DNA of 27,458 bases. It comes from a virus. Lineage: Duplodnaviria > Heunggongvirae > Uroviricota > Caudoviricetes. The stretch is from the IMG/VR virus record IMGVR_UViG_2703718852_000003, positions 1 to 27,458 of that record; one strand, written 5' to 3'. The notes below the pieces were generated by a model that saw nothing but the letters and a program-made list of their open reading frames with translations, made no database searches and was not told the DNA's origin. Positions 8,428 to 27,458 of this stretch are shown here, in pieces; the first letter of the stretch is position 1; each line of letters starts with the position of its first letter. A program made the translations under genes and the position numbers.

Positions 8428-8436
8428 AGGTCGGTC

Positions 8437-9378: not shown

Positions 9379-9380
9379 GC

Positions 9381-10419: not shown

Positions 10420-10438
10420 TTAAGAGGAGAAACGAAGT

Positions 10439-11248
10439 ATGAATAATCTGATGGTCATTGATGGTATTGAAGTTCATCGTGATGCTTATGGGCGTTACAG
10501 CCTGAACGATCTGCATCGCGCAGCAGTAGCATCTGGTGCAAATGCCAGAACCAAGGAGCCAGGAAAGTTTCTTTCCAGCCAACAAACTGTTGAGCTTGTT
10601 CATGAATTGACCAACACCCAGAATTTGGGTGTTGACCCGGTGAGTGTGATTCATGGGGGAAATGAACGGGGAACGTATGTCTGCAAGGAACTGGTGTATG
10701 CCTATGCAATGTGGATCAGCCCGTCATTCCATCTGAAGGTGATCCGTACTTTCGACATGGTAACCAGCGCACCGGAAAAATTATCCGGACAGGCTGCTGA
10801 CAAGATGCAGGCTGGTGTGATTCTGCTGGACTTTATGCGCCGGGAATTAAACCTGTCTAACTCTTCAGTGCTTGGTGCCTGTCAGAAACTCCAGGAGGCT
10901 GTTGGCTTACCGAATCTGGCACCGCGCTATGCCATTGATGCTCCTGCTGACGCGCCTGATGGCTCAAGCCGCCCCACGCTGTCGCTGAGTGCACTGCTGA
11001 AACAGTATGGTATCCGCCTGACGGCTAATCAGGCATATCACCAGATGGCGAAGCTGGGGATCGTTGAACAACGCGAACGATACAGCCGTACCGCGATTAA
11101 CAACATCAAAAAATTCTGGTCGCTGACAGCGAAAGGCTGCATGTTCGGCAAGAACATCACCAGTCCCGCAAATCCGCGCGAGACGCAGCCGCATTTCTTC
11201 GAATCCCGATTCCCTGAGCTGTTAAAGCTGCTCGATACCGTTCATTGA
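10439..11248 (+). CDS. KilA-N domain protein (anti-repressor-like)
   Basis: N-terminal KilA-N pattern (IDGIEVHRDAYGRYSLNDLHRAAVASG); strong AGGAG ribosome-binding site. Confidence 0.7.
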   Translation: MNNLMVIDGIEVHRDAYGRYSLNDLHRAAVASGANARTKEPGKFLSSQQTVELVHELTNTQNLGVDPVSVIHGGNERGTYVCKELVYAYAMWISPSFHLKVIRTFDMVTSAPEKLSGQAADKMQAGVILLDFMRRELNLSNSSVLGACQKLQEAVGLPNLAPRYAIDAPADAPDGSSRPTLSLSALLKQYGIRLTANQAYHQMAKLGIVEQRERYSRTAINNIKKFWSLTAKGCMFGKNITSPANPRETQPHFFESRFPELLKLLDTVH

Positions 11249-11249
11249 G

Positions 11250-12245
11250 GTGACCGTGAGAGCACTACTGACCCCTGAAATTGCCCCGCGTATGGGGATC
11301 GTATTGTTCAGGCCCGGTTCAGAGCTGATGCCCCTGTTTATGCAGGGGCGTGTCCTGCTGGAGCCTGAGCCGGAGCATTATTCATCTTTCGCCAGTGGTG
11401 CCGTTCCCGCGGCGTCACAACCGCTGGCGGATGATCCTGCCGTTTGGGCCGTGTTCCGCAATGAGGCAGTGATCCGTCGTGCTGGTGGCGTGGAATGTCT
11501 TGAAAGCTGGTTACTTCGTGAAAAAGGCTGCCAGTGGCCTCATTCCGACTGGCACAGCGAGAACATGACCACAATGCGACACGCTCCGGGTGCAATCCGT
11601 CTGTGCTGGCACTGCGATAACCAGCTGCGCGATCAGTTCACGGAACGGCTGGAATCAATGGCAACGGATAACTGTGCCCGCTGGGTGTTGTCTGTTGTGC
11701 GTCGGGATCTCGGTTTTGATGACAGTCACGTTGTGACAATGCCGGAACTGTGCTGGTGGCTGATTCGTAATGACCTGGCGGATGCCTTACCGGAAAGTGC
11801 AGCCCGTAAGGCACTGAGATTACCGAAGCCTGTTGTGCCGTCTGTCACCCGGGAAAGTGACCTTGTGCCTTCGGTTCCTGCTACCAGCATCATCCAGGAT
11901 AAGGCGAAAAAGGTGCTGGCGCTGAAAGTGGATCCGGAGTCGCCGGAGTCTTTTATGTTACGCCCAAAACGTCGCCGCTGGGTTAATGAAAAGTACACGC
12001 GCTGGGTTAAGACACAGCCGTGTGCATGTTGTGGAAAGCCTGCTGATGATCCCCACCACCTGATAGGTCACGGTCAGGGTGGAATGGGTACAAAAGCGCA
12101 TGACCTCTTTGTGTTGCCTTTGTGCAGAAAGCATCACGACGAGCTGCATGCAGATACCGTGGCATTTGAAGAGATGTATGGCTCCCAGCTGGAGCTGATA
12201 TTTCGTTTTATCGATCGTGCGCTGGCAATTGGCGTGCTGGCCTGA
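11250..12245 (+). CDS. DUF968-like protein with C-terminal Cys/His (HNH-like) motif
   Basis: C-terminal PCACCGKPADDPHHLIGHGQGGMGTKAHDLFVLPLCRKHHDELH; exact start uncertain (GTG at 11250 or 11256). Confidence 0.55.
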   Translation: MTVRALLTPEIAPRMGIVLFRPGSELMPLFMQGRVLLEPEPEHYSSFASGAVPAASQPLADDPAVWAVFRNEAVIRRAGGVECLESWLLREKGCQWPHSDWHSENMTTMRHAPGAIRLCWHCDNQLRDQFTERLESMATDNCARWVLSVVRRDLGFDDSHVVTMPELCWWLIRNDLADALPESAARKALRLPKPVVPSVTRESDLVPSVPATSIIQDKAKKVLALKVDPESPESFMLRPKRRRWVNEKYTRWVKTQPCACCGKPADDPHHLIGHGQGGMGTKAHDLFVLPLCRKHHDELHADTVAFEEMYGSQLELIFRFIDRALAIGVLA

Positions 12246-12695: not shown

Positions 12696-13736
12696 GTGAA
12701 CATTCAAGCAGTAGACATTTTTTGTGGCGCAGGGGGCTTAACTTTTGGGCTAAAAAAAGCCGGGATTGAAGTTTCTCATGGCATTGATATTGATGAGTCC
12801 TGCCGTTTCGCTATTGAGAGCAATAATCCCTTAACGAAGTTCATTAACCAGTCAGTTACTGAACTGCAATCCAGCGATGTGTCTGCTATGTTCAAGGAAG
12901 GAAATATTAGATTACTTGCAGGCTGTGCCCCTTGCCAACCGTTTTCCAAGTATCGTAATCCAAATAGCAGAAAAGATGATACAAAGTGGCGTCTTTTATC
13001 TGAGTTTCAGAGGATTGTAAGTGATGTCATGCCAGAGCTTGTGACTATGGAAAATGTTCCTCAACTTAGAAATCATAAGGTTTTTGAAGAGTTTGTTAGT
13101 GTATTAAAGACTCTTGGGTATCATCTGTGGTACGACGTTGTAAAATGTTCCGAGTATGGCTTGCCTCAAAATAGACGTAGATTAATTCTAATTGGGTCCA
13201 TATTGGGGCCAATCAGCCTTGATCAAAAAAAAGTAAGCCGTAAAGTTACAGTAAAGGATGCTATTGGTCAGTTGCCAAAAATAGGTGCAGGGGAGAAACT
13301 CGAAAGTGATCCATTGCATCGTTCGCCTAAATTAAGGGATATTAACCTTAAACGAATCTTGCACTCTTTACCAGGTGGTACGTGGGATGATTGGCCTGAA
13401 GAAATTAGAGCGGATTGCCATAAAAAGCATTCAGGTGCTACCTATAAAAGTGTTTATGGACGGATGGTTTGGGACGATACTAGTCCTACAATAACTACCC
13501 AATGTTATGGATATGGTAATGGGCGATTCGGACATCCTGAGCAAAATAGAGCAATAACTTTGCGTGAAGCTGCTATTTTACAATCTTTTCCTATGGATTA
13601 TAAATTTATTGGAAAAAATACGCCTTTTTCATTCCAAAAGTTAGGAACGATGATTGGTAATGCTGTTCCCCCTATAATTGGCCAAGTAATAGGGAGAACG
13701 TTTGTTAGGCATGTTGAGGGGATAAATATCCGTTAG
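12696..13736 (+). CDS. DNA (cytosine-5)-methyltransferase
   Basis: Motif I FCGAGG, motif IV catalytic PCQPFS, motif VI ENV, motif VIII QNRRR; GTG start with GGAGA ribosome-binding site; AT-rich. Confidence 0.9.
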   Translation: MNIQAVDIFCGAGGLTFGLKKAGIEVSHGIDIDESCRFAIESNNPLTKFINQSVTELQSSDVSAMFKEGNIRLLAGCAPCQPFSKYRNPNSRKDDTKWRLLSEFQRIVSDVMPELVTMENVPQLRNHKVFEEFVSVLKTLGYHLWYDVVKCSEYGLPQNRRRLILIGSILGPISLDQKKVSRKVTVKDAIGQLPKIGAGEKLESDPLHRSPKLRDINLKRILHSLPGGTWDDWPEEIRADCHKKHSGATYKSVYGRMVWDDTSPTITTQCYGYGNGRFGHPEQNRAITLREAAILQSFPMDYKFIGKNTPFSFQKLGTMIGNAVPPIIGQVIGRTFVRHVEGINIR

Positions 13737-14394
13737 AGATAATATAATCTTCAGTTGAGTTTATTAATAAACGAAGATATAGATCAACTCTCTCTGCTCT
13801 AGACTTAACTTCTTCTAAGGGGTCAATTTGCCCCTTTTTAGAGAAGCTAGTACTTCCATGCGCGAGTTCGTTTCTGATATCCTTAAGCAAGTCTAAGTCA
13901 ATACCATTTCTACATTCAGGTGAGTTTGCGATAGTTATTCCGTAAGCCTGCGTTATTTTGTGTAATACAGGCTTGCAAACATTACCATTGAATTCTTTAC
14001 GAATATTCAATGAGGCTGAAATTATTCTTTTGGAAATGTCAGTGCCTATCTTTTTATAAAGGGATTGCCCTGTTTCATTATCTGAAACAATTCTATGTAA
14101 TATATTTACTTGAAGCTTCTCCCTGAGTGATGCGTAATTCACCTCATTATCTTGTAAATGATCATAAATTGACTCGATGCAACCTCTGGCAGTATTTTCA
14201 ACTTGATTATATAGCATCATATGAACGGATGATTTTAAAATATTTACCCTTAGGATATTAGATTCTATTTCATCTTGATGCGCTTGCGGATCTAACTGCT
14301 GAGTATGAATCTCTATAGATGATGCAAGAGAAAGCAGTTCCATAATGTCTCTTGCTCTTTCTTCATATTCATCTCGTAAATCAATTAGACTCAT
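13705..14394 (-). CDS. HEPN-like protein (R-x4-HG motif), second gene of the DUF262 operon
   Basis: C-terminal IRNELAHG fits the HEPN R-x4-6-H motif; start 3 nt after the DUF262 stop; 3' end overlaps the convergent methyltransferase by 32 bp. Family assignment by eye only. Confidence 0.5.
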   Translation of the reverse strand: MSLIDLRDEYEERARDIMELLSLASSIEIHTQQLDPQAHQDEIESNILRVNILKSSVHMMLYNQVENTARGCIESIYDHLQDNEVNYASLREKLQVNILHRIVSDNETGQSLYKKIGTDISKRIISASLNIRKEFNGNVCKPVLHKITQAYGITIANSPECRNGIDLDLLKDIRNELAHGSTSFSKKGQIDPLEEVKSRAERVDLYLRLLINSTEDYIISNGYLSPQHA

Positions 14395-14396
14395 TT

Positions 14397-15557
14397 TTAA
14401 ATCCCTAACAACTTATTTTTAACGTAAAAGATTCTGTTTTTTAGCTGGCTGGTATTGTTTGCACTATCAGCAGTAACAAGTGTTTCAAATTCCTCTTCAA
14501 ATAGCCATTCACCTACAGGTACGGCTGGACTCTGGAGTTGTGGGTTAGTTTTTAATGCAAGTGCAGTTCCCACGGCAATGGCTTCGTATCTGGCTCGTGG
14601 GGTGGTTTTACTTGTTGCGGTCTTTTTAAAGCCAATAGGGAAATGGGTAGCAACAAAAGCAAGCATCATTTCAAAATCATGTTTAAAATTATCAACATCT
14701 TGTTGAGTAGTCACAGCTGCTGCTTGTTCATTTAAATAATTATCAATAAAGGGACGGACAAATCCCTTATAGTTTTCTAAATCATTTAAATATGCAAAAA
14801 ATCTCAAAACTAACTCACGATGATCGCCATTCGACCGTTTCCGGTCTGATAATGGAGCTAGTTGGGAAAAAAGTGAGTTTGTTGAGCATGGGGTCACAAC
14901 ATCTTTATAGAACATTGAGGTAGCAGCATCTGAGCCATGCCTCACTTCCATCGCTTCTAATCTTTTAACACCTGAGTTGATCCTTTCAAATAAATCTCTT
15001 CTATGTTGTTCCTCAACATCACCTTTCAACTCAATAAATCTTAGTGAAGCTCTTAAAAATCTTCTTTGGCGGCTAGCTAAAAGATCTGAAAATTTGAAAC
15101 CTTCTAAACTTTTAAGCTCTTTCAAATCCTTTAACTCAAATTGATCGTTCCAAAAATAATAAATAGAGCGTATCCGTTGTGAACCATCAATGATTTCTAC
15201 CCTACCATCTAATTCAGGGTCTTCATTAAATACATCAGCAATGTAAAGGTAAGGTATTGGAAAGTCTAATAGAATACTTTCTATAAAGCGAGAGGCTGTT
15301 TTTGTATCCCACTTGTAATCACGTTGATAATCTGGAATAAAAAGCTCGTTTTTGTCATTTTCAATATTATCACCATACTTTTGAATAATGACTTCAACGG
15401 TCCACTCACGTACATTGTATCCAATGTTTCTCTGAGCGAGTCTGATTTCATTGTCAGCGGAAGCGGTTAAAGCTGCAATTTCAGCCTTTTTTCTGTTCTT
15501 AGCGTGTTCATCTTGTATCTGAGCAAGCTCTTCTTTGAGTTCTTTGAGTGTAGTCAT
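14397..15557 (-). CDS. DUF262 (GmrS / ParB-like NTPase) domain protein
   Basis: Hallmark motifs FIPDYQRDYKWD and EIIDGSQR (DGQQR box); AAGGAA ribosome-binding site; AT-rich. Confidence 0.8.
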   Translation of the reverse strand: MTTLKELKEELAQIQDEHAKNRKKAEIAALTASADNEIRLAQRNIGYNVREWTVEVIIQKYGDNIENDKNELFIPDYQRDYKWDTKTASRFIESILLDFPIPYLYIADVFNEDPELDGRVEIIDGSQRIRSIYYFWNDQFELKDLKELKSLEGFKFSDLLASRQRRFLRASLRFIELKGDVEEQHRRDLFERINSGVKRLEAMEVRHGSDAATSMFYKDVVTPCSTNSLFSQLAPLSDRKRSNGDHRELVLRFFAYLNDLENYKGFVRPFIDNYLNEQAAAVTTQQDVDNFKHDFEMMLAFVATHFPIGFKKTATSKTTPRARYEAIAVGTALALKTNPQLQSPAVPVGEWLFEEEFETLVTADSANNTSQLKNRIFYVKNKLLGI

Positions 15558-15657
15558 GTTTTCGTTCCTTTAATTGAAAGTTGATTGTAAGAAAACTATA
15601 ACGCGTACGCAAAAAGTATTGTATTGTGTTAAGAGTGGTTACTTCGCCACACAACTT

Positions 15658-15682
15658 AAACCCGCCGTCGAGCGGGTTTTTT
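15658..15682 (+). terminator. Rho-independent terminator-like hairpin
   Basis: AAACCCGC-CGTCGA-GCGGGTTT followed by TTTTTTG on the plus strand. Confidence 0.5.
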
Positions 15683-15804
15683 GTACCTGTAAACCTGGTG
15701 CAGTACGGTAAACACGCTGGTGGTCGTGAATACTGACTTTTTATCTTGCTGGCTTTTTAGACAAGAGTTATTGGTATGTCATGTTAACCAGAAGGAAAAA
15801 AGAC

Positions 15805-15999
15805 ATGCTAAAACAGCAAGATATGACAGAAACGGCGAAAGTTGTTTTTAATGAATTAAGCATCGAACCGGCAACAGTCGGGGAGATTGCACAAAACACA
15901 TATCTTTCACGCGAACGCTGTCAGTTAATACTGACCCAGTTGGTTATGGCGGGGCTGGCAGATTACCAGTTCGGCTGTTACAGACGCCTTCAGCAATGA
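15805..15999 (+). CDS. Small hypothetical protein, possible winged-helix regulator
   Basis: ATG with GAAGGA ribosome-binding site; helix-turn-helix-like segment ATVGEIAQNTYLSRERCQLILTQL; divergent from the DUF262 operon. Confidence 0.4.
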   Translation: MLKQQDMTETAKVVFNELSIEPATVGEIAQNTYLSRERCQLILTQLVMAGLADYQFGCYRRLQQ

Positions 16000-16148
16000 A
16001 GGACTTTTAATTTGTGAAAATGGGCGGCTGGTGGGTGTTGGTAGCACCTGCCAGCCATTCGCTCATGCTTACTGGTCACAAGCGAACCACGGCCCACTGC
16101 TTTAGCGCAAAAGCAGAGTGAGCCTACCAGAGTTACGCTTACTGATCC

Positions 16149-17201
16149 ATGAAAAATACTGTAAAAATAAACAGTGTTGATTTAATCAACGCTGATTGCC
16201 TGCATTTTATTCAGTCCCTGCCTGATGATTCCATTGACCTGATTGTTACCGATCCGCCTTACTTCAAGGTGAAACCCAACGGTTGGGACAATCAGTGGAA
16301 AGGGGACGAAGATTACCTTAAGTGGCTGGACCACTGTCTGGCCCAGTTCTGGCGGGTGTTGAAACCTGCCGGAAGCCTTTACCTGTTCTGTGGGCATCGC
16401 CTGGCATCTGATATTGAGATCATGATGCGTGAACGTTTCAACGTGCTTAACCATATCATCTGGGCGAAGCCGTCCGGACGTTGGAATGGGTGTAATAAAG
16501 AAAGTCTGCGCGCATATTTTCCTGCCACAGAGCGCGTTCTGTTTGCTGAACATTACCAGGGGCCATATCGCGGCAAAAGTGACGGCTATGCGGCAAAAGA
16601 AAGGGAACTCAAACAGCACATAATGGCACCGCTGATATCGTATTTCAGGGATGCTCGTGCCGAACTGGGTATAACGGCAAAACAAATTGCCGAAGCCACA
16701 GGTAAGAAAAATATGGTTTCCCACTGGTTTGGTGCCAGTCAGTGGCAGTTGCCGAATGAGGCTGACTATCGGAAGTTACAGGCACTGTTTTCCCGTATAG
16801 CGGCAGAGAAGTTTCAGGAACAACAACTGGAACAACCACACCACCAGCTGGTGGCATCTTATGATTCACTGAATCGCAAATATTCTGAATTGCTGGATGA
16901 GTTTAAATCTCTCCGGCGCTATTTCTCCGTATCAGTCTCCGTGCCTTATACCGATGTCTGGATGCATAAACCCGTTCAGTTCTACCCGGGTAAACATCCG
17001 TGTGAGAAACCGGCGGATATGCTCAGGCAAATAATCAATGCCAGTAGTCGACCTGGTGATCTGGTTGCTGATTTTTTTATGGGATCCGGTTCCACAATAA
17101 AAGCAGCAATGGCGCTGGGGCGTCGGGCCTTAGGTGTTGAGCTTGAGTCAGAGCGGTTTAACCAGACAGTGAAAGAGATAAACGAGCTGGTGGGGAAATA
17201 A
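16149..17201 (+). CDS. DNA amino-methyltransferase (N6-adenine or N4-cytosine, beta class)
   Basis: Motif IV DPPY near the N-terminus and motif I FFMGSGST near the C-terminus. Confidence 0.8.
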
Positions 17202-17268
17202 TCTGGTGGCCACGTCAGGTGGCCTTTTTATTTCCATTACACAGCACCCGCATCTGCGAGGTGGGGTT

Positions 17269-17484
17269 ATGAAATCCATGGATAAGTTAACAACGGGTGT
17301 CGCCTATGGCACCTCAGCAGGTAGTGCCGGGTACTGGTTTTTACAGTTGCTCGATAAAGTCACGCCCTCACAGTGGGCGGCAATAGGTGTGCTGGGTAGT
17401 CTGGTATTTGGCCTGCTGACGTACCTGACAAACCTTTATTTCAAGATTAAAGAAGATAAGCGCAAGGCTGCGAGAGGTGAATAA
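17269..17484 (+). CDS. S: Pinholin, phage 21 S21-type, with dual-start motif
   Basis: [26 protein letters not shown] ... two transmembrane segments, charged C-terminus; matches the remembered S21 sequence; the ORF-track start at 17206 is an unsupported extension. Confidence 0.85.
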
Positions 17485-17981
17485 TGCCTCCATCATTACG
17501 AAAAGCAGTTGCTGCTGCTATTGGTGGCGGAGCAATTGCTATAGCATCAGTGTTAATCACTGGCCCAAGTGGTGACGATGGCCTGGAAGGTGTCAGCTAC
17601 ATACCATACAAAGATATCGTTGGCGTATGGACTGTATGTCACGGACACACCGGAAAAGACATCATGCTCGGTAAAACGTATACCGAAGCAGAATGCAAAG
17701 CCCTCCTGAATAAAGACCTTGCCACGGTTGCCAGACAAATTAACCCGTACATCAAAGTCGATATACCGGAAACAACGCGCGGCGCTCTGTACTCGTTCGT
17801 CTACAACGTGGGTGCTGGCAATTTCAGAACATCGACGCTTCTTCGCAAAATAAACCAGGGCGATATCAAAGGCGCATGTGACCAGCTACGTCGCTGGATA
17901 TACGCTGGCGGTAAGCAATGGAAAGGCCTGATGACTCGTCGTGAGATTGAGCGTGAAGTCTGTTTGTGGGGGCAACAATGA
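17484..17981 (+). CDS. R: SAR endolysin (signal-anchor-release lysozyme, R21-type)
   Basis: N-terminal Gly/Ala-rich SAR domain [20 protein letters not shown] followed by lysozyme catalytic region; start overlaps the holin stop. Confidence 0.9.
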
Positions 17982-18445
17982 GCAGAGTAACCGCGATTAT
18001 CTCCGCTCTGGTTATCTGCATCATCGTCTGCCTGTCGTGGGCGGTCAATCATTACCGTGATAACGCCATCGCCTACAAAGAACAGCGAGATAAAAAAGTC
18101 AGAGAGCTGAAGCAGGCGACCGCCACCATTACTGACATGCAGCAGCGCCAGCGTTCTGCTGATGCACTCGATGCTAAATACACGAAGGAGTTAGCTGATG
18201 CGAAAGCTGAAAATGATGCTCTTCGGCGCAAGCTTGATAATGGTGGTCGGGTGTTCGTCAAAGGAAAATGCCCTGTGCCATCCTCAGCCGAAACCTCCAG
18301 CGCCTCCGGCATGGGCAATGATGCCACCGTCGAACTCTCTCCAGTTGCTGGACGAAACGTTCTCGGTATCCGGGACGGAATTATCCGCGACCAAACAGCA
18401 CTGAGAACGCTTCAGGAATACATCAGGACGCAATGCCTTCGATGA
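17978..18445 (+). CDS. Rz: Rz i-spanin
   Basis: N-terminal transmembrane segment, coiled-coil-rich periplasmic domain; start overlaps the endolysin stop (ATGA). Confidence 0.75.
18198..18404 (+). CDS. Rz1: Rz1 o-spanin (lipoprotein embedded in the +1 frame of Rz)
   Basis: Signal peptide with lipobox (LIMVVGC), Pro-rich mature region, GAAGGAG ribosome-binding site; entirely within Rz. Confidence 0.7.
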
Positions 18446-18715
18446 TAGCGATAATTTTACTCATCATCCTTCACATCTGGCTCTGTAGACAGGATGGTGA
18501 TCACTTCTGGAGTGAATCCAGATTAAACATCTCATTGCTGATGCTTGAGGTTAAACATCTGGCGCGCGGTAAGGGGCTGCGTTGAGATAAGAGCCAGTTC
18601 ATTACAAAGCCTATCTACGGATGGGCTTGATAATGGTTTGTTAACCTCGCTTATCACGAACGGCATTACCGCAGGCATTCACTGAGTGCCTGCGATAATA
18701 CTTTTGATAGTCAGA

Positions 18716-18907
18716 TTACAGGATAAAAATTAGATCGAAGTAATAACCTCCTTCCATTGTGATTTTTCCTTCACGGTATAACTCGCAAAGAGAATCGAAA
18801 GTTTCTTCATGATTATCGTTCTCAGGGAACCATGCTGGCTGGAAAGCAACTTTTCCTTTTTCATTCATTACTTTTAACATATAAGGGATAATATCTTGTT
18901 TTTTCAT
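18716..18907 (-). CDS. Small hypothetical protein (AT-rich, opposite strand, in the position of lambda bor)
   Basis: 63 aa ORF with AAGAGG ribosome-binding site; no family recognised. Confidence 0.4.
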   Translation of the reverse strand: MKKQDIIPYMLKVMNEKGKVAFQPAWFPENDNHEETFDSLCELYREGKITMEGGYYFDLIFIL

Positions 18908-19104
18908 AAAAAAACCTCTTATTTTGATTGAAAAGTTTTACGCGGCATTTAGAGTACTTGAAGTCACTTCTCATCTTTAACGTCCTCCGCAAATACATCG
19001 AAAATAATATTCACTTTGTGATTTGTAGTTACCTTGGAAAGGTACATAACTAACGAGAATTACTCTCATCATTGACGGGTCCTCCCGGTGGGGTGGCCTG
19101 CCAC

Positions 19105-19187
19105 GGGGCGGGAGCGTCGCGGAAAAAGGCTAGTTTTTGAAATTTTATTCGTCATCACCACCACTGTAATTGATTGATATTACAGTG
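19105..19187. promoter_or_regulatory. Putative cos region: GGGGCGGGAGCGTCGCGG resembling lambda cosN, then AT-rich segment and a 9-bp perfect inverted repeat CACTGTAAT-N8-ATTACAGTG
   Basis: Resemblance to remembered lambda cos (GGGCGGCGACCTCGCGGGTTTT...) and location between the lysis genes and the small terminase gene. Confidence 0.3.
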
Positions 19188-19291
19188 ATTTTATTTTTAT
19201 GGTGTCGATTCTGATTGTTTTTTGTTCATCACTAACACCGTTTGCCTAAAGTTGTTCGCAAGATGCATGTTTAAAACATTCTGGAGCGGGT

Positions 19292-19621
19292 ATGGATCGA
19301 GAGTTAAAAAATCTGACGCTGAATATCAGTCAACTGGCGGCATTGTCAGGTGTACATCGCCAGACTGCTGCGGCAAGGCTGCAAAATCTACCCGTTGCAG
19401 GGGGGCATGAAAGCAACCTCAAGCTTTATCGGGTGGTTGATATTGTGTCGGCATTTCTGGCATTACCACCGCCGGTTGCAGAAGGCGAAATGGACGCGCA
19501 TGAGCGCAAAGCCTGGTATCAGTCTGAACGTGAGCGTCTTAAGTTTGAACAGGAAACGGCACAACTCATTCCGGCCAGTGATGTCAGACGGGAGTTTGCC
19601 ATCTGGGCAAAATCCGGATGA
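19292..19621 (+). pseudogene. Terminase small subunit (Nu1-like), truncated or frame-disrupted
   Basis: N-terminal helix-turn-helix (LNISQLAALSGVHRQTAAARLQNL); ORF stops at 109 aa; a charged tail continues in another frame to 19769; no large terminase or portal gene follows. Confidence 0.55.
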
Positions 19622-19782
19622 TGTCAAACGTCGGCGCAAGGCCGAAATTGATGAAAACCGCAAGCTGGATCTGGTATTTGATACCGATCCGGCCAGTGAT
19701 AAAGGAGGCAGCAGTGCCGCAACGAAACGACAGGAGCCGCAGCACACCGACGACCAGTCCGAAGAATAATTCCTGGTTCAGG

Positions 19783-21945
19783 ATGCAGGCTGGTCACCAG
19801 AGTGACGCGGATATTTATATTTATGACGAGATTGGTTTCTGGGGTGTTACAGCGAAGCAGTTTATCAGTGATCTGAATGCACTGGGCGATATCACCCACA
19901 TTAATCTCCATATTAATTCACCGGGTGGCGATGTCTTTGAAGGCATCGCCATTTTTAATGCGCTGAAAACACATGGTGCGTCCATTACCGTTTATGTCGA
20001 CGGTGTGGCGGCGTCAATGGCGTCGGTCATTGCGATGGTGGGAAACCCGGTCATTATGCCGGAAAACACCTTCATGATGATTCATAAACCATTTGGCTTT
20101 ACGGGCGGTGATGCGGAGGACATGCGCACCTATGCCGACCTGCTCGATAAAGTTGAGGCGGTTCTGTTACCCGCTTATGCACAGAAAACCGGGAAAACCA
20201 CCGATGAAATTGCTGCCATGCTGGCGGATGAGACCTGGATGTCCGGTGCCGAATGTCTGGCACATGGATTTGCTGATCAGGTAACGCCAGCCGTTAAGGC
20301 AATGGCATGTATTCAGTCAAAACGTACAGAGGAATTTAAAAAGATGCCGGAATCCATTCGAAACATGATTACTCCGCCACGCAACAGTGCTCCACGCGTA
20401 CAGGATAATGAACCTGAAGCCTCCCGGACGCCAGTGCAGGCAGCAGCACCCGTGGTGGATGAAAACAGCATCCGTGCGCAGGTACTGGCAGAGCAAAAAG
20501 CGCGTGTAAACGGTATTAATGATCTGTTTGCCATGTTTGGCGGGCGTTATCAGACGCTGCAGGCTCAGTGTCTTGCCGATCCTGAATGTTCGCTGGAGCA
20601 GGCCCGCGAAAAGCTGTTGAACGAGATGGGGCGCGAGTCCACGCCATCCAATAAAAATACCCCGGCTCATATTTATGCCGGTAACGGTAATTTTGTGGGG
20701 GACGGGATCCGCCAGGCGCTGATGGCGCGTGCCGGATTTGAAAAAACCGAACGTGATAATGTCTACAACGGGATGACCCTGCGTGAATATGCCCGTATGT
20801 CACTGACTGAACGGGGTATTGGGGTTTCCAGTTATAACCCGATGCAGATGGTCGGTGCGGCGTTCACACACAGTACGTCTGACTTCGGTAATATTCTGCT
20901 GGATGTTGCGAACAAAGCCATTCTGCAGGGCTGGGAAGATGCCCCTGAAACCTATGAACAGTGGACGCGGAAAGGTCAGTTGTCTGATTTTAAAATTGCC
21001 CATCGTGTGGGTATGGGGGGCTTCAGTGCTCTGCGTCAGGTGCGTGAAGGGGCGGAATATAAATACGTCACCACCGGAGATAAACAGGCCACTATTGCAC
21101 TGGCGACCTATGGCGAGCTGTTCAGTATCACCCGTCAGGCCATTATCAATGATGATCTGAATATGCTGACCGATGTCCCGATGAAACTGGGCCGTGCGGC
21201 GAAATCCACTATTGCCGATCTGGTTTATGCCATTCTGACGTCTAACCCGAAAATCTCCACAGATAATGTAAGTCTGTTCGATAAAGCGAAACATGCAAAC
21301 GTACTGGAGAGCGCTGCAATGGACGTGGCACCGGGCATGGCACGCATCTGCCTTTACGGGGATTTACAACGATTTGGCCGCCGCATCGACCTTCGAGTGA
21401 AAACGGGGTCCGAAGCCATCCGGGCGCTGGCCATGCAGAACCCGGCGTTTCGTCAGAAACTGAGTGACGGCTGGTACCAGGTACGCATTGCCGGGCGTGA
21501 TGCAGGTGAAACCGAATTGTCTGCCCGTCTTAATGAGCCGCTGGCAAATGGTGCCGTGATCCACATCGTGCCGCGTCTGGCGGGAGCTAAAAGTGGAGGT
21601 GTGTTTCAGGTGGTGCTGGGGGCGGCGCTGATTGCGGTGGCATGGTGGAACCCTGTGGGCTGGCTGGGTGCCGCGGCTGTATCGGGCATGTATGCGGCAG
21701 GGGCCAGTATGATCCTGGGCGGAGTGGCGCAGATGCTGGCACCGAAAGCCAGGACGCCCACGGCAGCAAGTACAGATAACGGCAAACAGAACACCTATTT
21801 CTCCTCACTGGATAACATGGTTGCCCAGGGCAATGTTCTGCCGGTTCTGTACGGTGAAATGCGCGTGGGGTCTCGCGTGGTTTCTCAGGAGATCAGCACG
21901 GCAGACGAAGGGGACGGTGGTCAGGTTGTGGTGATTGGTCGCTGA
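19783..21945 (+). CDS. Chimeric ORF: ClpP-like prohead protease plus HK97-type major capsid protein (C-terminally truncated) fused in frame to a lambda gpI-like tail assembly protein
   Basis: Protease core HINSPGGDVFEGIAIFNALK ... ASMASVIAMVG; capsid-like middle; from about 21336 MARICLYGDLQRFGRRIDL ... NTYFSSLDNMVAQGNVLPVLYGEMRVGSRVVSQEISTADEGDGGQVVVIGR matches remembered lambda gpI. Confidence 0.65.
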   Translation: MQAGHQSDADIYIYDEIGFWGVTAKQFISDLNALGDITHINLHINSPGGDVFEGIAIFNALKTHGASITVYVDGVAASMASVIAMVGNPVIMPENTFMMIHKPFGFTGGDAEDMRTYADLLDKVEAVLLPAYAQKTGKTTDEIAAMLADETWMSGAECLAHGFADQVTPAVKAMACIQSKRTEEFKKMPESIRNMITPPRNSAPRVQDNEPEASRTPVQAAAPVVDENSIRAQVLAEQKARVNGINDLFAMFGGRYQTLQAQCLADPECSLEQAREKLLNEMGRESTPSNKNTPAHIYAGNGNFVGDGIRQALMARAGFEKTERDNVYNGMTLREYARMSLTERGIGVSSYNPMQMVGAAFTHSTSDFGNILLDVANKAILQGWEDAPETYEQWTRKGQLSDFKIAHRVGMGGFSALRQVREGAEYKYVTTGDKQATIALATYGELFSITRQAIINDDLNMLTDVPMKLGRAAKSTIADLVYAILTSNPKISTDNVSLFDKAKHANVLESAAMDVAPGMARICLYGDLQRFGRRIDLRVKTGSEAIRALAMQNPAFRQKLSDGWYQVRIAGRDAGETELSARLNEPLANGAVIHIVPRLAGAKSGGVFQVVLGAALIAVAWWNPVGWLGAAAVSGMYAAGASMILGGVAQMLAPKARTPTAASTDNGKQNTYFSSLDNMVAQGNVLPVLYGEMRVGSRVVSQEISTADEGDGGQVVVIGR

Positions 21946-21963
21946 TGCAAAATGTTTTATGTG

Positions 21964-21990
21964 AAACCGCCTGCGGGCGGTTTTGTCATT
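21964..21990 (+). terminator. Terminator-like hairpin between the gpI-like region and J
   Basis: AACCGCC-TGCG-GGCGGTT stem-loop followed by a T-rich run. Confidence 0.35.
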
Positions 21991-22005
21991 TATGGAGCGT
22001 GAGGA

Positions 22006-23877
22006 ATGGGTAAAGGCAGCAGTAAGGGGCATACCCCGCGCGAAGCGAAGGACAACCTGAAGTCCACGCAGCTGCTGAGTGTGATCGATGCCATCAGCGA
22101 AGGGCCGGTTGAAGGTCCGGTGGATGGATTAAAAAGCGTGCTGCTGAACAGTACGCCGGTGCTGGACAGTGATGGGAATACCAACATCGCCGGTGTCACG
22201 GTGGTGTTCCGGGCCGGTGAGCAGGAGCAGACTCCGCCGGAGGGATTTGAATCCTCCGGCTCCGAGACGGTGTTGGGTACGGAAGTGAAATACGACACGC
22301 CGATCACCCGGACCATCACGTCGGCAAACATTGACCGTCTGCGTTTTACTTTCGGCGTGCAGGCACTGGTGGAAACCACCTCAAAGGGGGACAGGAATCC
22401 ATCGGAAGTCCGCCTGCTGGTTCAGATACAACGTAACGGTGGCTGGGTGACGGAAAAAGACATCACCATTAAGGGTAAAACCACTTCACAGTATCTGGCC
22501 TCGGTGGTGGTGGATAACCTGCCGCCGCGCCCGTTTAATATCCGGATGCGCAGGATGACGCCGGACAGCACCACAGACCAGCTGCAGAACAAAACGCTCT
22601 GGTCGTCATACACCGAAATTATCGATGTGAAACAGTGCTACCCGAACACGGCACTGGTCGGCGTGCAGGTGGACTCGGAGCAGTTCGGCAGCCAGCAGGT
22701 GAGCCGTAATTATCATCTGCGCGGGCGTATTCTGCAGGTGCCGTCGAATTATAACCCGCAGACGCGGCAATACAGCGGTATCTGGGACGGAACGTTTAAA
22801 CCGGCATACAGCAACAACCCGGCCTGGTGTCTGTGGGATATGCTGACCCATCCGCGCTACGGCATGGGGAAACGTCTTGGTGCGGTGGATGTGGATAAAT
22901 GGGCGCTGTATCTTATCGGCCAGTACTGCGACCAGTCAGTGCCGGACGGCTTTGGCGGCACGGAGCCGCGCATCACCTGTAATGCCTGGCTGACCACACA
23001 GCGTAAGGCGTGGGATGTGCTCAGCGATTTCTGCTCGGCGATGCGCTGTATGCCGGTATGGAACGGGCAGACGCTGACGTTCGTGCAGGACCGACCGTCG
23101 GATAAGGTGTGGACCTATAACCGCAGTAATGTGGTGATGCCGGATGATGGCGCGCCGTTCCGCTACAGTTTCAGCGCCCTGAAAGACCGCCATAATGCCG
23201 TTGAGGTGAACTGGATTGACCCGGATAACGGCTGGGAGACGGCGACAGAGCTTGTGGAGGACACGCAGGCCATTCTCCGTTACGGTCGTAACGTCACGAA
23301 GATGGATGCCTTTGGCTGTACCAGCCGGGGGCAGGCACACCGCGCCGGGCTGTGGCTGATTAAAACGGAGCTGCTGGAGACGCAGACCGTGGACTTCAGC
23401 GTGGGTGCCGAAGGGCTTCGCCATGTACCGGGCGATGTCATTGAAATCTGCGATGATGACTATGCCGGTATCAGCACCGGCGGGCGCGTGCTGGCGGTGA
23501 ACAGCCAGACCCGGACGCTGACGCTCGACCGTGAAATCACGCTGCCATCTTCCGGTACCACGCTGATAAGCCTGGTTGACGGGCAGGGGAGTCCGGTCAG
23601 CGTGGAGGTCCAGTCCGTCACCGACGGCGTGAAGGTGAAAGTGAGCCGTGTTCCTGACGGCGTTGCCGGATACAGCGTATGGGGGCTGAAGCTGCCGACG
23701 CTGCGCCAGCGCCTGTTCCGCTGCGTGAGTATCCGTGAGAACGATGACGGCACGTATGCCATCACCGCCGTGCAGCATGTAACTACGGCTCCCCTTACGG
23801 AAACATTGACTTTATCGAGATCTCGGCGCGCGGTCTGCCTTCTTTGCTTAGTGCGGATAATGTTTCTCGTCATCTGA
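22006..23877 (+). pseudogene. J: Tail tip host-specificity protein J, N-terminal roughly 590 aa only
   Basis: Near-identity to remembered lambda J from MGKGSSKGHTPREAKDNLKSTQLL through ITAVQHV, then unrelated sequence and a stop after about 30 codons; full J is about 1130 aa. Confidence 0.8.
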
Positions 23878-26408
23878 GTATACGCCGCTTAGGGTCAACC
23901 GGGCTGACCGATAACAACCAGATGCGTTACGGCCTGGTTAAAGGTGATGGCTTTATTGAGGTTTGGGCCTTCCAGTGCGCATTTATCAACGGCGCAAAGG
24001 TTGCGGTACTGGCGCAGACGGCACGCACGGAATTATACATTCCAGACGGATTTGTTAAGCAAACCGCCGCGCCTTCTGGATATATTGAAGGCAACGTTGT
24101 AAGGATTTACGACCAGGTAAACAAGCCGACTAAAGCAGATTTGGGTCTTTCTAATGCTATGCTTACAGGCGCTTTCGGTCTTGGCGGTAGCGGGATATCA
24201 ACAAACGGCAAGATGAGCGATGTAGAGATCTTAAAAGCTCTGCGTGACAAAGGTGGTCATTTCTGGCGCGGTGATAAGCCGACCGGAAGCACGGCGACCA
24301 TTTATAGCCACGGTTCTGGTATATTCTCGCGGTGCGGCGATACGTGGTCAGCGATCAATATCGACTACTCAACCGCGAAGATTAAGATCTATGCCGGCAA
24401 CGATGCCCGGCTTAACAACGGGACTTTTAGCGTCAATGAGCTATACGGCTCGGCAAACAAGCCGTCGAAATCGGATGTTGGACTTGGCAACGTAACGAAC
24501 GATGCGCAGGTAAAAAAAACCGGCGATACAATGACCGGTGACTTGACAATCAAAAAAGGTACACCGTCAGTCTTCCTGCGGGCAGACAGTGGAGTCACCG
24601 CTTTGCGGTTTTATACTGGCGATAACACAGAGCGCGGCATAATCTATGCTGGTCCTAACACTGATTCGCTTGGCGAAGTTCGCATCAGGGCAAAGACAGC
24701 AGGGGGGACATCAGGAGGGGATCTTGTTGTTCGTCACGACGGGAGGGTTGAAGTCCGTGATCTCACAGTAGCGTATAAAATTAAAAGCAGAACGATTGAG
24801 ATTGCAAATACCGACACTGACTCATCGGCAACTACGCTCAGCATCTATGGAGTACAGCACACGCCGTTGGTTTTAACGCGTTCTGGTTCTTCTGAAAATG
24901 TGTCCATTGGGTTTAAGTTAGACAACATGAACCCAAAGTATCTTGGAATTGATACTAATGGGGATCTGGCTTTTGGTGAGAGTCCTGATCAGAAACAAAA
25001 CAGCAAATTGATCACGCAAGCGAAACTCGACAAGGGATTAACGATTGGTGGTCAACTGGCTTTCAAAGGTACGACAGCGTTTTCAGCCGTTGCTACGTTC
25101 AGTGCCGGGATAGCAGGAGCCATCGAGCCGGAAAACATTGACGGCCAGACGGTTAATCTTAACAACCTGACCATCATCAAGTCAGATGCCGGGGCAGTTA
25201 AATACTATATTTGTCCATCCTCTGCAGGTGGTGCAAATATCACCAACAAGCCTGACGGCGTAACAGGTAACTTTTTGCTCCGTGTTGAATCGACTCGTAA
25301 GGTTAGGGATTCAGATTATGCGAACATGCAAACGCTGATTAACAGCGACACAAAACGTATATACGTTCGCTTTGTTGTTAATGGAAACTGGACAGCGTGG
25401 AGTCAGGTTGTTGTTTCCGGATGGAATCAGGATGTAACCGTCAGGTCGTTAACCTCGACGACTCCATCAAAATTAGGTGGCGGGCGGATTGATGTGCTTG
25501 GAAGTACGTCAGATTATGGCAGCATGAATTGTACCGTTCGTGGTGTTGATAGCACTGGAACCAATTCGGCGTGGTCGGTAGGCACATCAGAAAGCACAGG
25601 CAAAAAGTTGTTCCTGAAAAACCACAGAAGCAGCGCTCAAGTGCTGTTAAATGGCGATGATGGAGCGGTTCAACTACTAAGTGGCACTGTTAACGGTGCT
25701 ACAGCGCAGGCGCTAACCATCAACAAAGATGAGGTTAACTCAACTGCCGATTTAGTAATTAGAAAACAAACAGGGACTGGCAATCGTTTTGCTTTACTTA
25801 ATTCAGGTAATTCAGAACTGCCAGTTAGCATCGCGGTCTGGGGGTCAAGTGATCGACAAAACGTTTTTGAGGTTGCAACGTCTGCTGCGTATCTGTTTTA
25901 TGCGCAAAGAACACCAGCAGGCCAGTTGTTTGATGTAAATGGCGCTATTAATTGCACAACGCTGAATCAGTCATCAGACCGCGACCTTAAAGACGATATT
26001 CGCGTTATCAGCGACGCGACGAAAGCAATCCGCAAAATGAACGGTTACACCTACACGCTCAAGGAAAACGGCCTGCCTTATGCTGGCGTTATTGCACAGG
26101 AAGTAATGGAGGCGATACCAGAAGCTGTGGGATCGTTTACTCATTATGGTGAAGAGTTGCAAGGTCCGACCGTTGACGGCAACAAGCTACGCGAAGAAAC
26201 GCGCTATCTTAATGTTGACTACGCCGCCGTGACGGGTTTACTTGTTCAGGTCGCCCGTGAAACAGATGATCGCGTTACCGCGCTGGAAGAGGAAAACACA
26301 ACGCTACGTCAAAATCTGGCAACAGCAGGCACCCGGATCAGCACTCTGGAAAATCAGGTAAGCGAACTGGTTGCACTTGTCCGGCAGTTAACAGGAAGCG
26401 AACATTGA
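23844..26408 (+). CDS. Side tail fibre protein with C-terminal intramolecular chaperone (peptidase S74-like) domain
   Basis: Fibre repeats (NKPSKSDVGLGNVTNDAQVKKTGDTMTGDLTI); C-terminal SDRDLKDDI ... coiled-coil segment typical of the auto-cleaving chaperone; true N-terminus uncertain because the frame is open upstream. Confidence 0.7.
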   Translation: MLSADNVSRHLSIRRLGSTGLTDNNQMRYGLVKGDGFIEVWAFQCAFINGAKVAVLAQTARTELYIPDGFVKQTAAPSGYIEGNVVRIYDQVNKPTKADLGLSNAMLTGAFGLGGSGISTNGKMSDVEILKALRDKGGHFWRGDKPTGSTATIYSHGSGIFSRCGDTWSAINIDYSTAKIKIYAGNDARLNNGTFSVNELYGSANKPSKSDVGLGNVTNDAQVKKTGDTMTGDLTIKKGTPSVFLRADSGVTALRFYTGDNTERGIIYAGPNTDSLGEVRIRAKTAGGTSGGDLVVRHDGRVEVRDLTVAYKIKSRTIEIANTDTDSSATTLSIYGVQHTPLVLTRSGSSENVSIGFKLDNMNPKYLGIDTNGDLAFGESPDQKQNSKLITQAKLDKGLTIGGQLAFKGTTAFSAVATFSAGIAGAIEPENIDGQTVNLNNLTIIKSDAGAVKYYICPSSAGGANITNKPDGVTGNFLLRVESTRKVRDSDYANMQTLINSDTKRIYVRFVVNGNWTAWSQVVVSGWNQDVTVRSLTSTTPSKLGGGRIDVLGSTSDYGSMNCTVRGVDSTGTNSAWSVGTSESTGKKLFLKNHRSSAQVLLNGDDGAVQLLSGTVNGATAQALTINKDEVNSTADLVIRKQTGTGNRFALLNSGNSELPVSIAVWGSSDRQNVFEVATSAAYLFYAQRTPAGQLFDVNGAINCTTLNQSSDRDLKDDIRVISDATKAIRKMNGYTYTLKENGLPYAGVIAQEVMEAIPEAVGSFTHYGEELQGPTVDGNKLREETRYLNVDYAAVTGLLVQVARETDDRVTALEEENTTLRQNLATAGTRISTLENQVSELVALVRQLTGSEH

Positions 26409-26591
26409 TATCCTTCAAGCTCTGAAGGAGGCTGTTCCCGGTACGTTCAGACTGTTGTTGAGCTGGAAATCGCAACGGAGGAAGAAACCTTGTTGCTGGA
26501 AGCCTGGAAAAAGTATCGGGTGTTGCTGAACCGTGTTGATACATCAACTGCACCTGATATTGAGTGGCCTACAGTACCTGTTATGGAATAA
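26409..26591 (+). pseudogene. Tail fibre assembly protein (Tfa) C-terminal remnant, no start codon
   Basis: In-frame after the fibre stop; encodes ...[30 protein letters not shown], the conserved Tfa C-terminus. Confidence 0.6.
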
Positions 26592-26648
26592 TCGTTACTG
26601 CTGTAGCCATAATAACGTCATATACAAGAGCTTGCTGGATTACGAAGT

Positions 26649-26850
26649 ATGCGCGCTGATTTTGAAGATAAAATCAGTGGTACAAAGTCCGAAAGGCCTG
26701 GGCTGAAAAAACTACTCAGAATATTATCGGCAGGTGACACACTGATTGTCTGAAAGCTGGACTGACTGGGGGCGTTTTTTCTTCCATGTTATGGGGCTCA
26801 GGCCGAAATGGAACGTGAACTGACTGTTAAGAGAACAATAGTCGGGTTTT
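26649..26850 (+). pseudogene. Serine DNA invertase (Pin/Hin/Gin family) remnant with N-terminal loss, internal deletion and two in-frame stops
   Basis: Translation MRADFEDKISGTKSERPGLKKLLRILSAGDTLIV*KLD*LGAFFLPCYGAQAEMERELTVKRTIVGF matches Pin segments FEDKLSGTRTDRPGLK ... DTLVVWKLDRLG and RFFFHVMGALAEMERELIIERT; catalytic Ser region missing. Confidence 0.6.
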
Positions 26851-27035
26851 GAGGCTGCGAGATTACATAGAGTTAATTGGTTGATTAATAGGGTATAGAG
26901 GTTATCCAACTATTCGTTACGACATATATTGTTGTTACCTACAAGTTATGAAAAATATATTATTTTATTGATTTTTTGTATGTACAGATTAATACTTAAT
27001 ACGCATCAATCTGCACATTTGCTTTTGTGAGAGAA

Positions 27036-27458
27036 TTATCGTTGTAAGAGTGATTTAATATTGTTGGCGACTACTTCAGGATTATTATCATAGACCATAT
27101 AATACTTATCACTAAGTAAAGGTAATGATAGGTTTACGACCTCCTCGTCTTCTTTTTTTAATAAGGTCAAAAGTTTTACGTCGCCACTCGATATTTCGCT
27201 GGCTAAAACTGCCCTTAATTCTTTTTGAGGCCATTCCTTATTGACTGAATTAGCAGATAAAATAGCGATGACATATTTTGATTTAACTAGTGCTGCATTT
27301 ATTTTCTCAATTAAGGAGTCGCCCCATTTTATCTCAACATGATCTATGAAGGCTGAAATTTTAAGTTTAGTTAACTCGTCATATATTGGAATTGCAATGC
27401 CTTTTTTGTCTTCGCTTGCATGGCATATAAAAACATCAAAGTTTTCTGTTTCTTTCAT
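27036..27458 (-). CDS. TIR-domain protein (standalone, about 140 aa)
   Basis: N-terminal FDVFICHASEDK and conserved SANSVNKEWPQKEL block (S-x-x-S-x-W-x-x-E-L with putative catalytic Glu); AT-rich; start codon at the window edge, so upstream context is not visible. Confidence 0.75.
   Translation of the reverse strand: MKETENFDVFICHASEDKKGIAIPIYDELTKLKISAFIDHVEIKWGDSLIEKINAALVKSKYVIAILSANSVNKEWPQKELRAVLASEISSGDVKLLTLLKKEDEEVVNLSLPLLSDKYYMVYDNNPEVVANNIKSLLQR

Follow-up and report, generated by a model that had tools for sequence, protein, structure and literature searches.

The right end of this prophage raises the question of whether a tail-fibre gene followed by remnants of tfa and of an invertase gene is what is left of an invertible host-range switch overwritten by a self-chaperoning fibre, as the initial annotation had proposed from the sequence alone. 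The window analysed here is the whole stretch of 27,458 nucleotides, and its relevant features are collected in Table 1. Taken together, the results make it very probable that the region no longer functions and forms the right end of a cryptic lambda-like E. coli prophage located between yjjG and prfC, and that mosaic recombination and decay shaped it in three successive layers instead of a single overwriting. Neither the fibre gene nor the tfa and invertase remnants can still fulfil their original roles.

Table 1. Features at the right end of the prophage (positions refer to the window)
Feature	Position	Strand	Evidence
gpJ (tail-tip protein) 5' fragment, codons 1-592	22006-23781	+	Pfam FNIII-A_GpJ, Phage-tail_3; AF44 identity
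Deletion joint, 3-bp GTA microhomology	23779-23781		Comparison with AF44
stf 3' fragment, codons 383-1258 and stop	23781-26408	+	Alignment with AF44, Ayreon and mEp460 fibres
Fibre ORF	23844-26408	+	Pfam, ORF list
S74 intramolecular-chaperone domain and terminal helical tail	25974-26408	+	PF13884, E 2.3e-13; PDB 6F45 alignment
Post-stop spacer, always accompanying the S74 module	26409-26444	+	Identical or nearly so in seven loci
tfa 3' relic, lambda-type Tfa codons ~147-194 and stop	26445-26591	+	Pfam, protein and DNA comparison
tfa switch interval, 41 bp, inferred homologous crossover	26532-26572		Alignment to both GCUET01 relics
Spacer before pin relic, maybe degenerate pin 5' sequence	26592-26633		~85% identity (by eye) with the AR89.2B tfa/pin joint
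Pin/Gin-type serine-invertase relic	26634-26884	+	DNA homology to pinE nt 63-227 and ~300-414; Pfam

The comparison with the AF44 prophage (NZ_OZ547155) clearly showed that the window corresponds to AF44 minus 3,603 bp (positions 8398-12000 of the AF44 locus, L001), with 100% identity on either side, the gpJ fragment matching AF44 gpJ up to position 8397. Lost in this deletion are J's distal half, the lom gene and the first 382 stf codons; gpJ codon 592 now abuts codon 383 of the 1,258-codon stf in a different frame, such that the J ORF runs on for 31 codons in fibre DNA to a stop at 23877. The AF44 stf frame is open across its whole length, in agreement with the fibres of Ayreon (1,252 aa) and mEp460 (1,202 aa); PGAP divides the intact AF44 fibre into a 'pseudo N-terminal domain' and an 'S74 peptidase', which appears to be an artefact because of this open frame. 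The J/stf joint was found in none of the 5,426 complete E. coli genomes; the identical J fusion protein is encoded by at least 12 NCBI draft contigs, and three draft loci from three different assemblies (L010-L012) are 100% identical to the window. The prophage also carries a ClpP/capsid::gpI fusion ORF, thus indicating that head and tail genes were deleted.

What remains of stf in the window has no start codon and no lambda-Stf N-terminal tail-attachment domain, so that the complete gene is reduced to codons 383-1258, in a frame that stays open for 876 codons. The TTG at 23844 was considered as a gene start and rejected, the homology to fibre genes beginning already at 23779-23781, in mid-gene. 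The fibre gene itself is thus evidently a 5'-truncated fragment in a gutted prophage, a point missed by the initial annotation, and annotators should not take the ORF at 23844 for a fibre gene.

Other parts of that proposal held up well. The fibre had been said to end in an SDRDLKDDI-type intramolecular chaperone domain, and Peptidase_S74 (PF13884) indeed matches ORF residues 711-762 over profile positions 1-57 of 58 (50.7 bits; cut-off, 22). The motif S711-D-R-D-L-K716 (ORF numbering; 25974-25991 of the window) aligns with SSDRRIKKDI of phage S16 gp37 (PDB 6F45, E 9e-5), and the domain contains both the Ser and the Lys five residues downstream. The role of this Ser/Lys dyad in S74 cleavage is known from endosialidase work. 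In the intact form found in AF44, Ayreon and mEp460, the fibre would fold by means of its C-terminal chaperone, without Tfa, and the chaperone, to judge from its family, would cut itself off at the Ser of SDRDLK. The viability of Ayreon and mEp460 is no proof that their side fibres assemble, since lambda grows without Stf. Further upstream, 23916-24546 shares 79.5% identity with a long-tail-fibre gene from Salmonella; the phage that carries it has a 110-kb genome, and we take it to be T5-like from the genome size (~110 kb) and the gene name. An NCBIfam scan assigned no family to the fibre fragment or the tfa stub; the downstream TIR alone received a name, retron-type RT-TIR. In the literature on Peptidase_S74 in E. 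coli prophages we found nothing specific to the present module, and a Nature 2024 paper on lambda-STF engineering does not mention chaperones.

Directly after the fibre TGA, the sequence 26409-26591 continues the frame of the fibre, and it ends, just as had been proposed, in the C-terminus of a Tfa protein devoid of a start. The last 48 codons match Caudo_TAP at profile positions 86-130 of 131 (E 4.9e-20), are 81% identical at the protein level to residues 147-194 of an intact lambda-type Tfa, and share 93-94% DNA identity with the 3' end of lambda tfa. No start codon precedes them, the only candidate being an internal TTG at 26490, and a full-length Tfa ORF (~190 codons, covering the Caudo_TAP profile) is not present. 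The in-frame position of the relic is a one-in-three coincidence inherited by all copies.

The Pin-family relic was likewise recognised correctly as bearing two in-frame stops and an internal deletion: PinE residues 31-66 are represented, W62 and R65 having become stops, then comes a deletion of ~101 bp followed by frameshifts, and the homology is gone past ~residue 131-137. The damage is evidently greater than had been described, as both the catalytic-Ser region and the C-terminal HTH domain are absent. The homology starts only at pinE nt 63 (~codon 22), Pfam covers just profile positions 37-69, which leaves out the N-terminal part of the Din-family catalytic domain, and the interrupted frame loses its homology at pinE nt 414 of 555. 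The 42-bp stretch 26592-26633 was tried as the pin 5' end and left unassigned: a local alignment with pinE extends leftwards from nt 63 by only ~20 bp, beyond which it is unconvincing. The relic shares 78-85% DNA identity with pinE and the invertase genes of P2-like phages, and its closest intact relatives lie in canonical fibre - tfa - tfa' - fibre' - invertase layouts (e14, P2-like phage, APEC37). In AF44, PGAP labels the counterparts of the two relics 'tail fiber assembly protein, incomplete' and 'recombinase family protein, frameshifted', and in GCUET01 too the tfa stub is annotated as incomplete and the recombinase as frameshifted. The tfa and recombinase fragments of the sister genomes are thus already annotated as pseudogenes in RefSeq, and this is ordinary mosaic decay.

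The distribution of the S74/tfa junction bears directly on where the fibre end was replaced. A 141-bp junction probe matched 1,380 places, none below 95% identity, in 805 of the 5,426 complete E. coli genomes, and from the stop through the spacer to the tfa stub the sequence is the same, or nearly so, in seven loci, Ayreon and mEp460 included. The full-length fibre of mEp460 is of the S74 type, with no gene whatever between stf and dinI; Ayreon has an S74-type fibre as in mEp460 and no annotated tfa, and the free phages sharing the joint have no pin nearby. Because the identical junction occurs so widely among genomes and in free phages, the replacement was not local: the module of S74 end, stop and tfa relic is, on this evidence, old and mobile and was not created at the present locus.

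The decay of the invertase, in turn, was independent of the S74 replacement, because AR89.2B has the same tfa-stop/N-truncated-pin junction beside an intact tfa. In AR89.2B, an intact stf and an intact 194-codon tfa are followed by the same spacer and the N-truncated pin; from pin nt ~81 rightwards the sequence shares 98.9% identity with APEC37, and this identity breaks off sharply inside pin. How the two modules came together is suggested by GCUET01, where the layout is S74 - stub 1 - methyltransferase - stub 2 - pin relic. The window stub consists of the 5' part of the S74-attached stub 1 and the 3' part of the pin-attached stub 2, the changeover falling within 41 identical bases. The tfa relic is thus, by alignment, a chimera of the two stubs that flank the methyltransferase cassette in this sister prophage, and recombination evidently uses the conserved 3' end of tfa as its joint. 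Between loci, the stubs differ in their 3' ends, and recombination of lambda with Rac inside tfa has been shown experimentally (PMC3945230). The single-stub form of the window could also be ancestral to the two-stub form of GCUET01 rather than derived from it.

These findings make it improbable that a working fibre - tfa - tfa'/fibre' - pin switch was overwritten here in one step by an S74 cassette that created both relics. The order and strand of the fibre, tfa stub and pin relic do fit the switches of e14, P2-like phages and APEC37 minus the inverted half, and the relic is of the Pin/Gin type. However, one-step overwriting is at odds with an S74/tfa joint common to 805 genomes and to free phages without a nearby pin, is contradicted by the tfa/pin joint beside the intact tfa of AR89.2B, and does not account for a stub that is a chimera of two. 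The search for elements of a switch leads to the same conclusion. The crossover core AAACCNNGGTTT, allowing up to 2 mismatches, had no match beyond window position 21450, and the best matches of the full e14, Mu and Hin sites (pix, gix, hix) to the window were no better than those to shuffled sequence; as a control, the e14 sites were recovered in the e14 locus (L006, 3786-3806 and 5604-5624). The residual crossover sites that the initial annotation had suggested looking for are therefore not apparent, nor did the core motif rise above chance in the relative with an intact tfa (L003). The repeat search revealed no long inverted repeats, and tblastn with Tfa proteins detected only the plus-strand stub, with no inverted tfa'/fibre' cassette; hence, both hallmarks of a G/C/P-type switch, the inverted pair of ~26-bp sites and the oppositely oriented cassette of fibre tip and tfa, were absent from the window. 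A pin gene adjoining tfa without an invertible segment of its own is normal in K-12 Rac, and PinQ, encoded by Qin, reportedly acts on the P segment of e14 in trans (PMC12529663). Of the overwritten switch there remains, then, that an S74 end replaced the distal stf and the first ~146 tfa codons, but not at the present locus, and that the invertase has intact kin in invertible switches, but was damaged separately.

In the history that we favour, the first layer is old and widely shared: a lambda-type stf-tfa pair was turned into a self-chaperoning side tail fibre, in which the conserved Stf N-terminal domain was retained and the distal shaft, tip and S74 chaperone were imported from elsewhere, part of this sequence resembling the long-tail-fibre gene of the large, putatively T5-like Salmonella phage. 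The right-hand joint lies inside tfa, sparing its last ~48 codons, and the S74 module with its stub now circulates among lambdoid phages and prophages. In a second, independent layer, an N-truncated pin already stood directly behind an intact tfa in another lambdoid lineage, and the highly conserved tfa 3' end would have supplied the homology by which this tfa-pin remnant acquired the S74 module, either directly or through loss of the methyltransferase cassette between two tfa stubs; either route would yield the chimeric stub of the window. The third layer would be recent and clonal: the pin remnant probably decayed further, the 3.6-kb microhomology deletion then fused gpJ to mid-stf, and further deletions took the head and tail genes. 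We infer the order of the first two layers at the prfC site from only a few loci.

It is more doubtful still that the remnants are kept for a function, such that the truncated fibre or the J::fibre fusion would be expressed, occupy a surface receptor and protect the cell, or the stub would be translated, whether by read-through of the TGA or with a start at the internal TTG. There is a precedent in the chimeric StfE2 of e14, a fibre fragment of a cryptic prophage that is reported to block T2 adsorption (PMC12529663). The long fibre frame is still open, but this is accounted for by the recency of the deletion, the window being 100% identical to AF44. The stub, in frame after the TGA, is better conserved than the fibre (2.2% nucleotide divergence from Ayreon vs. 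6.8% over the last 250 fibre codons), but exchange with the many E. coli tfa copies would explain this, and dN/dS analysis of the stub met with 1-4 substituted codons, too few to detect selection. A read-through extension, moreover, would ride on a chaperone domain that the fibre is expected to shed. Visual inspection showed neither a ribosome-binding site nor a credible start ahead of the fibre fragment, and a promoter/terminator scan gave nothing beyond chance, with no promoter-like site upstream of 26723. In a weaker variant of the same idea, the ultra-conserved tfa 3' stub would be kept as a portable homology arm for swapping modules between prophages; the cargo named for it comprises fibre modules and downstream defence/moron cassettes (methyltransferase, acyltransferase, RT-TIR). 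Finally, the chance that an assembly or sequencing artefact masks a true genome with intact genes is negligible, as the J fusion recurs in contigs from separate assemblies, the three retrieved loci are identical to the window, and the complete genomes AF44 and GCUET01 show the same tfa and pin lesions in place of the intact invertase and tfa that, according to the initial annotation, resequencing might have revealed.

Among known systems, the side fibres of Ayreon (MF807953), mEp460 (JQ182728) and the AF44 prophage belong to the same gene family and module as that of the window, sharing the distal tip and the S74 chaperone, after which the TGA, the spacer and the tfa stub are identical as well. 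They keep the lambda-Stf N-terminal domain, whereas the window fibre has lost its first 382 codons, with the rest fused out of frame to gpJ, and the window prophage, unlike these three, has also lost head and tail genes. The K1F/NF endosialidases, T5 pb1 (the L-shaped tail fibre) and S16 gp37 likewise have the S74 domain with Ser-x4-Lys at the extreme C-terminus and a helical tail, although the shaft and tip of the window fibre are unrelated to endosialidase. For the BASEL phage collection, S74-type fibres are described as an alternative to those that have a separate Tfa (10.1101/2024.09.12.612763). The last 48 codons of the window relic resemble lambda Tfa/Caudo_TAP, but the N-terminal three quarters and the start are absent, which leaves a pseudogene fragment.

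The pin relic has the same orientation relative to the fibre as in the switches of e14 (Pin/P), Mu (Gin/G), P1 (Cin/C) and P2-like phages; in contrast to Din-family switches, the window lacks the catalytic N-terminus, the HTH, the crossover sites and the inverted cassette. The K-12 prophages Rac and Qin (stf - tfa - pinR/pinQ) are likewise lambdoid and cryptic, with a serine recombinase just after tfa and no invertible segment of their own (PMC12529663), but their PinR and PinQ are intact and convergent with tfa, unlike the relic, which has no DNA similarity to pinR; PinR and PinQ share only 38% identity with PinE (PMC12529663). The locus illustrates how cryptic prophages lose function via microhomology deletions and how recombination at the conserved tfa 3' end joins on fibre modules and cargo lying downstream alike. 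In other words, it provides a worked example of lambdoid tail-fibre evolution, in which S74 ends displace Tfa-dependent ends.

The window is part of a defective, lambda-like E. coli prophage. Its sister element in AF44, a nearly identical strain, sits between yjjG (integrase side) and prfC, with the right end ordered gpJ, lom, side tail fibre (stf), tfa fragment, recombinase fragment, RT-TIR anti-phage gene, dinI and prfC. Identity to AF44 is 99.98-100% over window segments 12908-19345, 21821-23781 and 23779-27458, and three draft contigs (L010-L012) from NCBI assemblies match at 100% across all shared sequence; because of these matches, we regard the sequence as natural and clonal rather than an artefact. 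The in-frame ClpP/capsid::gpI fusion marks a large deletion of head and tail genes. Window positions 19346-21820 are wholly missing from the otherwise ~100% identical AF44 prophage, an independent deletion. In the window's clone, the RT-TIR gene differs from the 534-codon AF44 copy by a 1-bp indel and reads as two pieces (128 + 385 codons), reflecting either a real frameshift or a sequencing/assembly error; its retron ncRNA would lie beyond the window.

Features of the prophage and of related loci
Feature	Position	Description
Late-region cluster	~12900-17200 (AF44, L001 1-4295)	DNA cytosine methyltransferase, HEPN-like nuclease (MAE_28990 family) and DUF262 protein on the minus strand, then second DNA methyltransferase; possibly a defence or modification island
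Small ORF	~18717-18908 (-)	just past the lysis genes; Kazal-type serine protease inhibitor family protein in the AF44 annotation; unusual for a prophage moron
Fusion ORF	19618-21945 (+)	775 codons; ClpP-type prohead protease and part of capsid protein, fused in frame to the C-terminal region of lambda tail-assembly protein I (gpI)
Fibre ORF	23844-26408	S74 domain at C-terminal end
tfa stub	26409-26591	directly after the fibre TGA, same frame; 36-bp spacer, then the stub
pin relic	26634-26884	Pin-type invertase fragment
RT-TIR gene	27036-27458 (-), running past window end; L010/L011 11031-12658	3′ (TIR) end of retron-type RT-TIR anti-phage gene (NCBIfam NF042941)
AF44 fibre frame	L001 10854-14630	open, 1,258 codons
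Methyltransferase cassette	L002 10634-11865; L004 6030-7257	opposite-strand, SAM-dependent; between two tfa 3′ stubs in direct orientation; prophages at two distinct chromosomal sites
AR89.2B joint	L003 6207 / L015 6001	apparent junction, within pin, of lambdoid stf-tfa with the right end of a myovirus-type, e14-like prophage adjoining ssrA

The chaperone domain that the initial annotation placed at the end of the fibre ORF was recovered as the whole Peptidase_S74 profile (PF13884, E 2.3e-13), and the chaperone domain of phage S16 gp37 (PDB 6F45) aligns over the S711-DRDL-K716 motif. In AF44 numbering the putative cleavage-site Ser falls at about residue 1114, and self-chaperoning would release a C-terminal piece of ~145 residues. 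What that reading missed is that the fibre gene is itself a relic. Fibre-gene similarity starts sharply at 23779, and the window equals AF44 minus 3,603 bp (L001 8398-12000), with the triplet GTA common to both sides of the joint. Lost in this deletion were J from codon 593 on, lom and the first 382 stf codons, and J codon 592 now meets stf codon 383 out of frame; therefore, the J ORF runs out at 23877, and the apparent TTG “start” at 23844 is merely mechanical. Nothing in the window is able to build a fibre. This joint occurs in none of the 5,426 complete genomes and in at least 12 draft contigs; carrier isolates include those behind GCA_946403035.1 and GCA_958312585.1. In its build the AF44 fibre matches those of two phage isolates, Ayreon (1,252 aa) and mEp460 (1,202 aa): a lambda-Stf N-terminal domain and an Ala/Ser-rich shaft are followed by a different distal part ending in S74. 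PGAP divides it into an N-terminal-domain feature labelled “pseudo, missing C-terminus” and a second feature of 915 codons, “pyocin knob domain-containing S74 family peptidase”, which is probably an annotation artefact, since the frame is open throughout; the same split is repeated in many RefSeq genomes.

The in-frame Tfa C-terminus reported after the fibre stop is indeed present: the stretch behind the TGA closes with 48 codons from the 3′ end of a lambda-type tfa (Caudo_TAP profile positions 86-130/131, E 4.9e-20), with 81% protein identity to intact Tfa and 93-94% DNA identity to lambda tfa. PGAP labels its counterparts in AF44 and GCUET01, another prophage at the prfC site, “tail fiber assembly protein, incomplete”. 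The TGA stop, a 36-bp spacer and the stub recur with little or no change in seven loci, among them both prfC prophages, a prophage beside potB, an OkiPb01694 prophage beside an mcrC gene cluster, and phages Ayreon and mEp460, while a 141-bp probe over the joint matched 805 of the 5,426 complete genomes in 1,380 places, always at ≥95% identity. Because the joint is so widely shared, replacement of the distal part of stf and of the opening three quarters of tfa was a single, ancient event, the product of which has since spread. Within the new shaft, 23916-24546 shares 79.5% identity with the long-tail-fibre gene found in Salmonella phages whose genomes measure ~110 kb, which points to a T5-like lineage as donor if these phages are, as we take them to be, T5-like. 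In mEp460, zero genes lie between stf and dinI, which agrees with S74 fibres needing no Tfa; it is not proof, because side fibres are dispensable for lambda growth.

The stub serves as a recombination joint. In GCUET01 the order is S74, stub 1, a small ORF, an opposite-strand SAM methyltransferase, stub 2 and the pin relic; in the window's lone stub, the 5′ part corresponds to stub 1 and the 3′ part to stub 2, with the switch falling in 41 identical bases (26532-26572). Recombination of stub 1 with stub 2 may have deleted the methyltransferase cassette, or the crossover of an S74 donor may have fallen directly within the 41-bp stretch; both routes fit. The cassette looks like cargo moved by recombination between tfa ends. 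Stub ends vary by locus (PTVPVME, PTNPVRE, LEEPNTM, or earlier divergence), as does the cargo behind them. Divergence from Ayreon is 2.2% in the stub vs. 6.8% in the adjoining fibre codons, as expected under continued exchange with the many E. coli tfa copies. Recombination between lambda and Rac inside tfa has been shown experimentally (PMC3945230).

The invertase relic is likewise as first described, with two in-frame stops and an internal deletion. A member of the Pin/Gin group, it corresponds to PinE residues 31-66, with stop codons in place of W62 and R65, and beyond residue 66 shows a ~101-bp deletion, frameshifts and no homology past about residue 131-137; the catalytic-serine region and HTH domain are missing. 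DNA identity is 78% to K-12 pinE and 84-85% to invertase genes of P2-like phages, and no similarity to pinR was found. PGAP calls its counterparts in AF44 and GCUET01 “recombinase family protein, frameshifted”.

The initial annotation took these relics for an invertible host-range switch overwritten by the S74 fibre, an interpretation only partly supported, although its observations were confirmed. That the relic descends from a real switch is plausible because its closest intact relatives (for example in e14, a P2-like phage and an e14-like prophage of APEC37 beside ssrA) all stand in the canonical order fibre, tfa, inverted tfa′, inverted fibre tip, invertase. The switch was, however, not overwritten at this locus, since the window yielded no crossover site scoring above shuffled sequence, although the e14 control sites were recovered, and no inverted cassette; moreover, a pin gene beside tfa without its own invertible segment is the normal state in Rac, and Qin's PinQ reportedly works in trans on the P segment of e14 (PMC12529663). 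In strain AR89.2B, stf (3.5 kb) and tfa (194 codons) are both intact and precede the same spacer and a pin already lacking its N-terminus, so pin was truncated before the S74 module arrived or independently of that arrival. Rightwards from pin nt ~81, AR89.2B and APEC37 share 98.9% identity, with a sharp fall to the left that marks a recombination joint inside pin; AR89.2B appears to be a lambdoid/e14-like hybrid.

Each element comes from a known family, and the RefSeq annotation of sister genomes already gives pseudogenes or an S74 fibre. Fibre mosaicism, Pin-type switches and recombination of phages with defective prophages are established ideas, and the whole region represents ordinary, already known prophage decay. 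Intramolecular chaperones and separate Tfa proteins are likewise established alternatives (10.1101/2024.09.12.612763). The sole non-trivial reading left, which we consider very improbable, is that the still-open fibre fragment might be expressed and block a receptor by analogy with StfE2 of e14, for which receptor blocking has been reported (PMC12529663).
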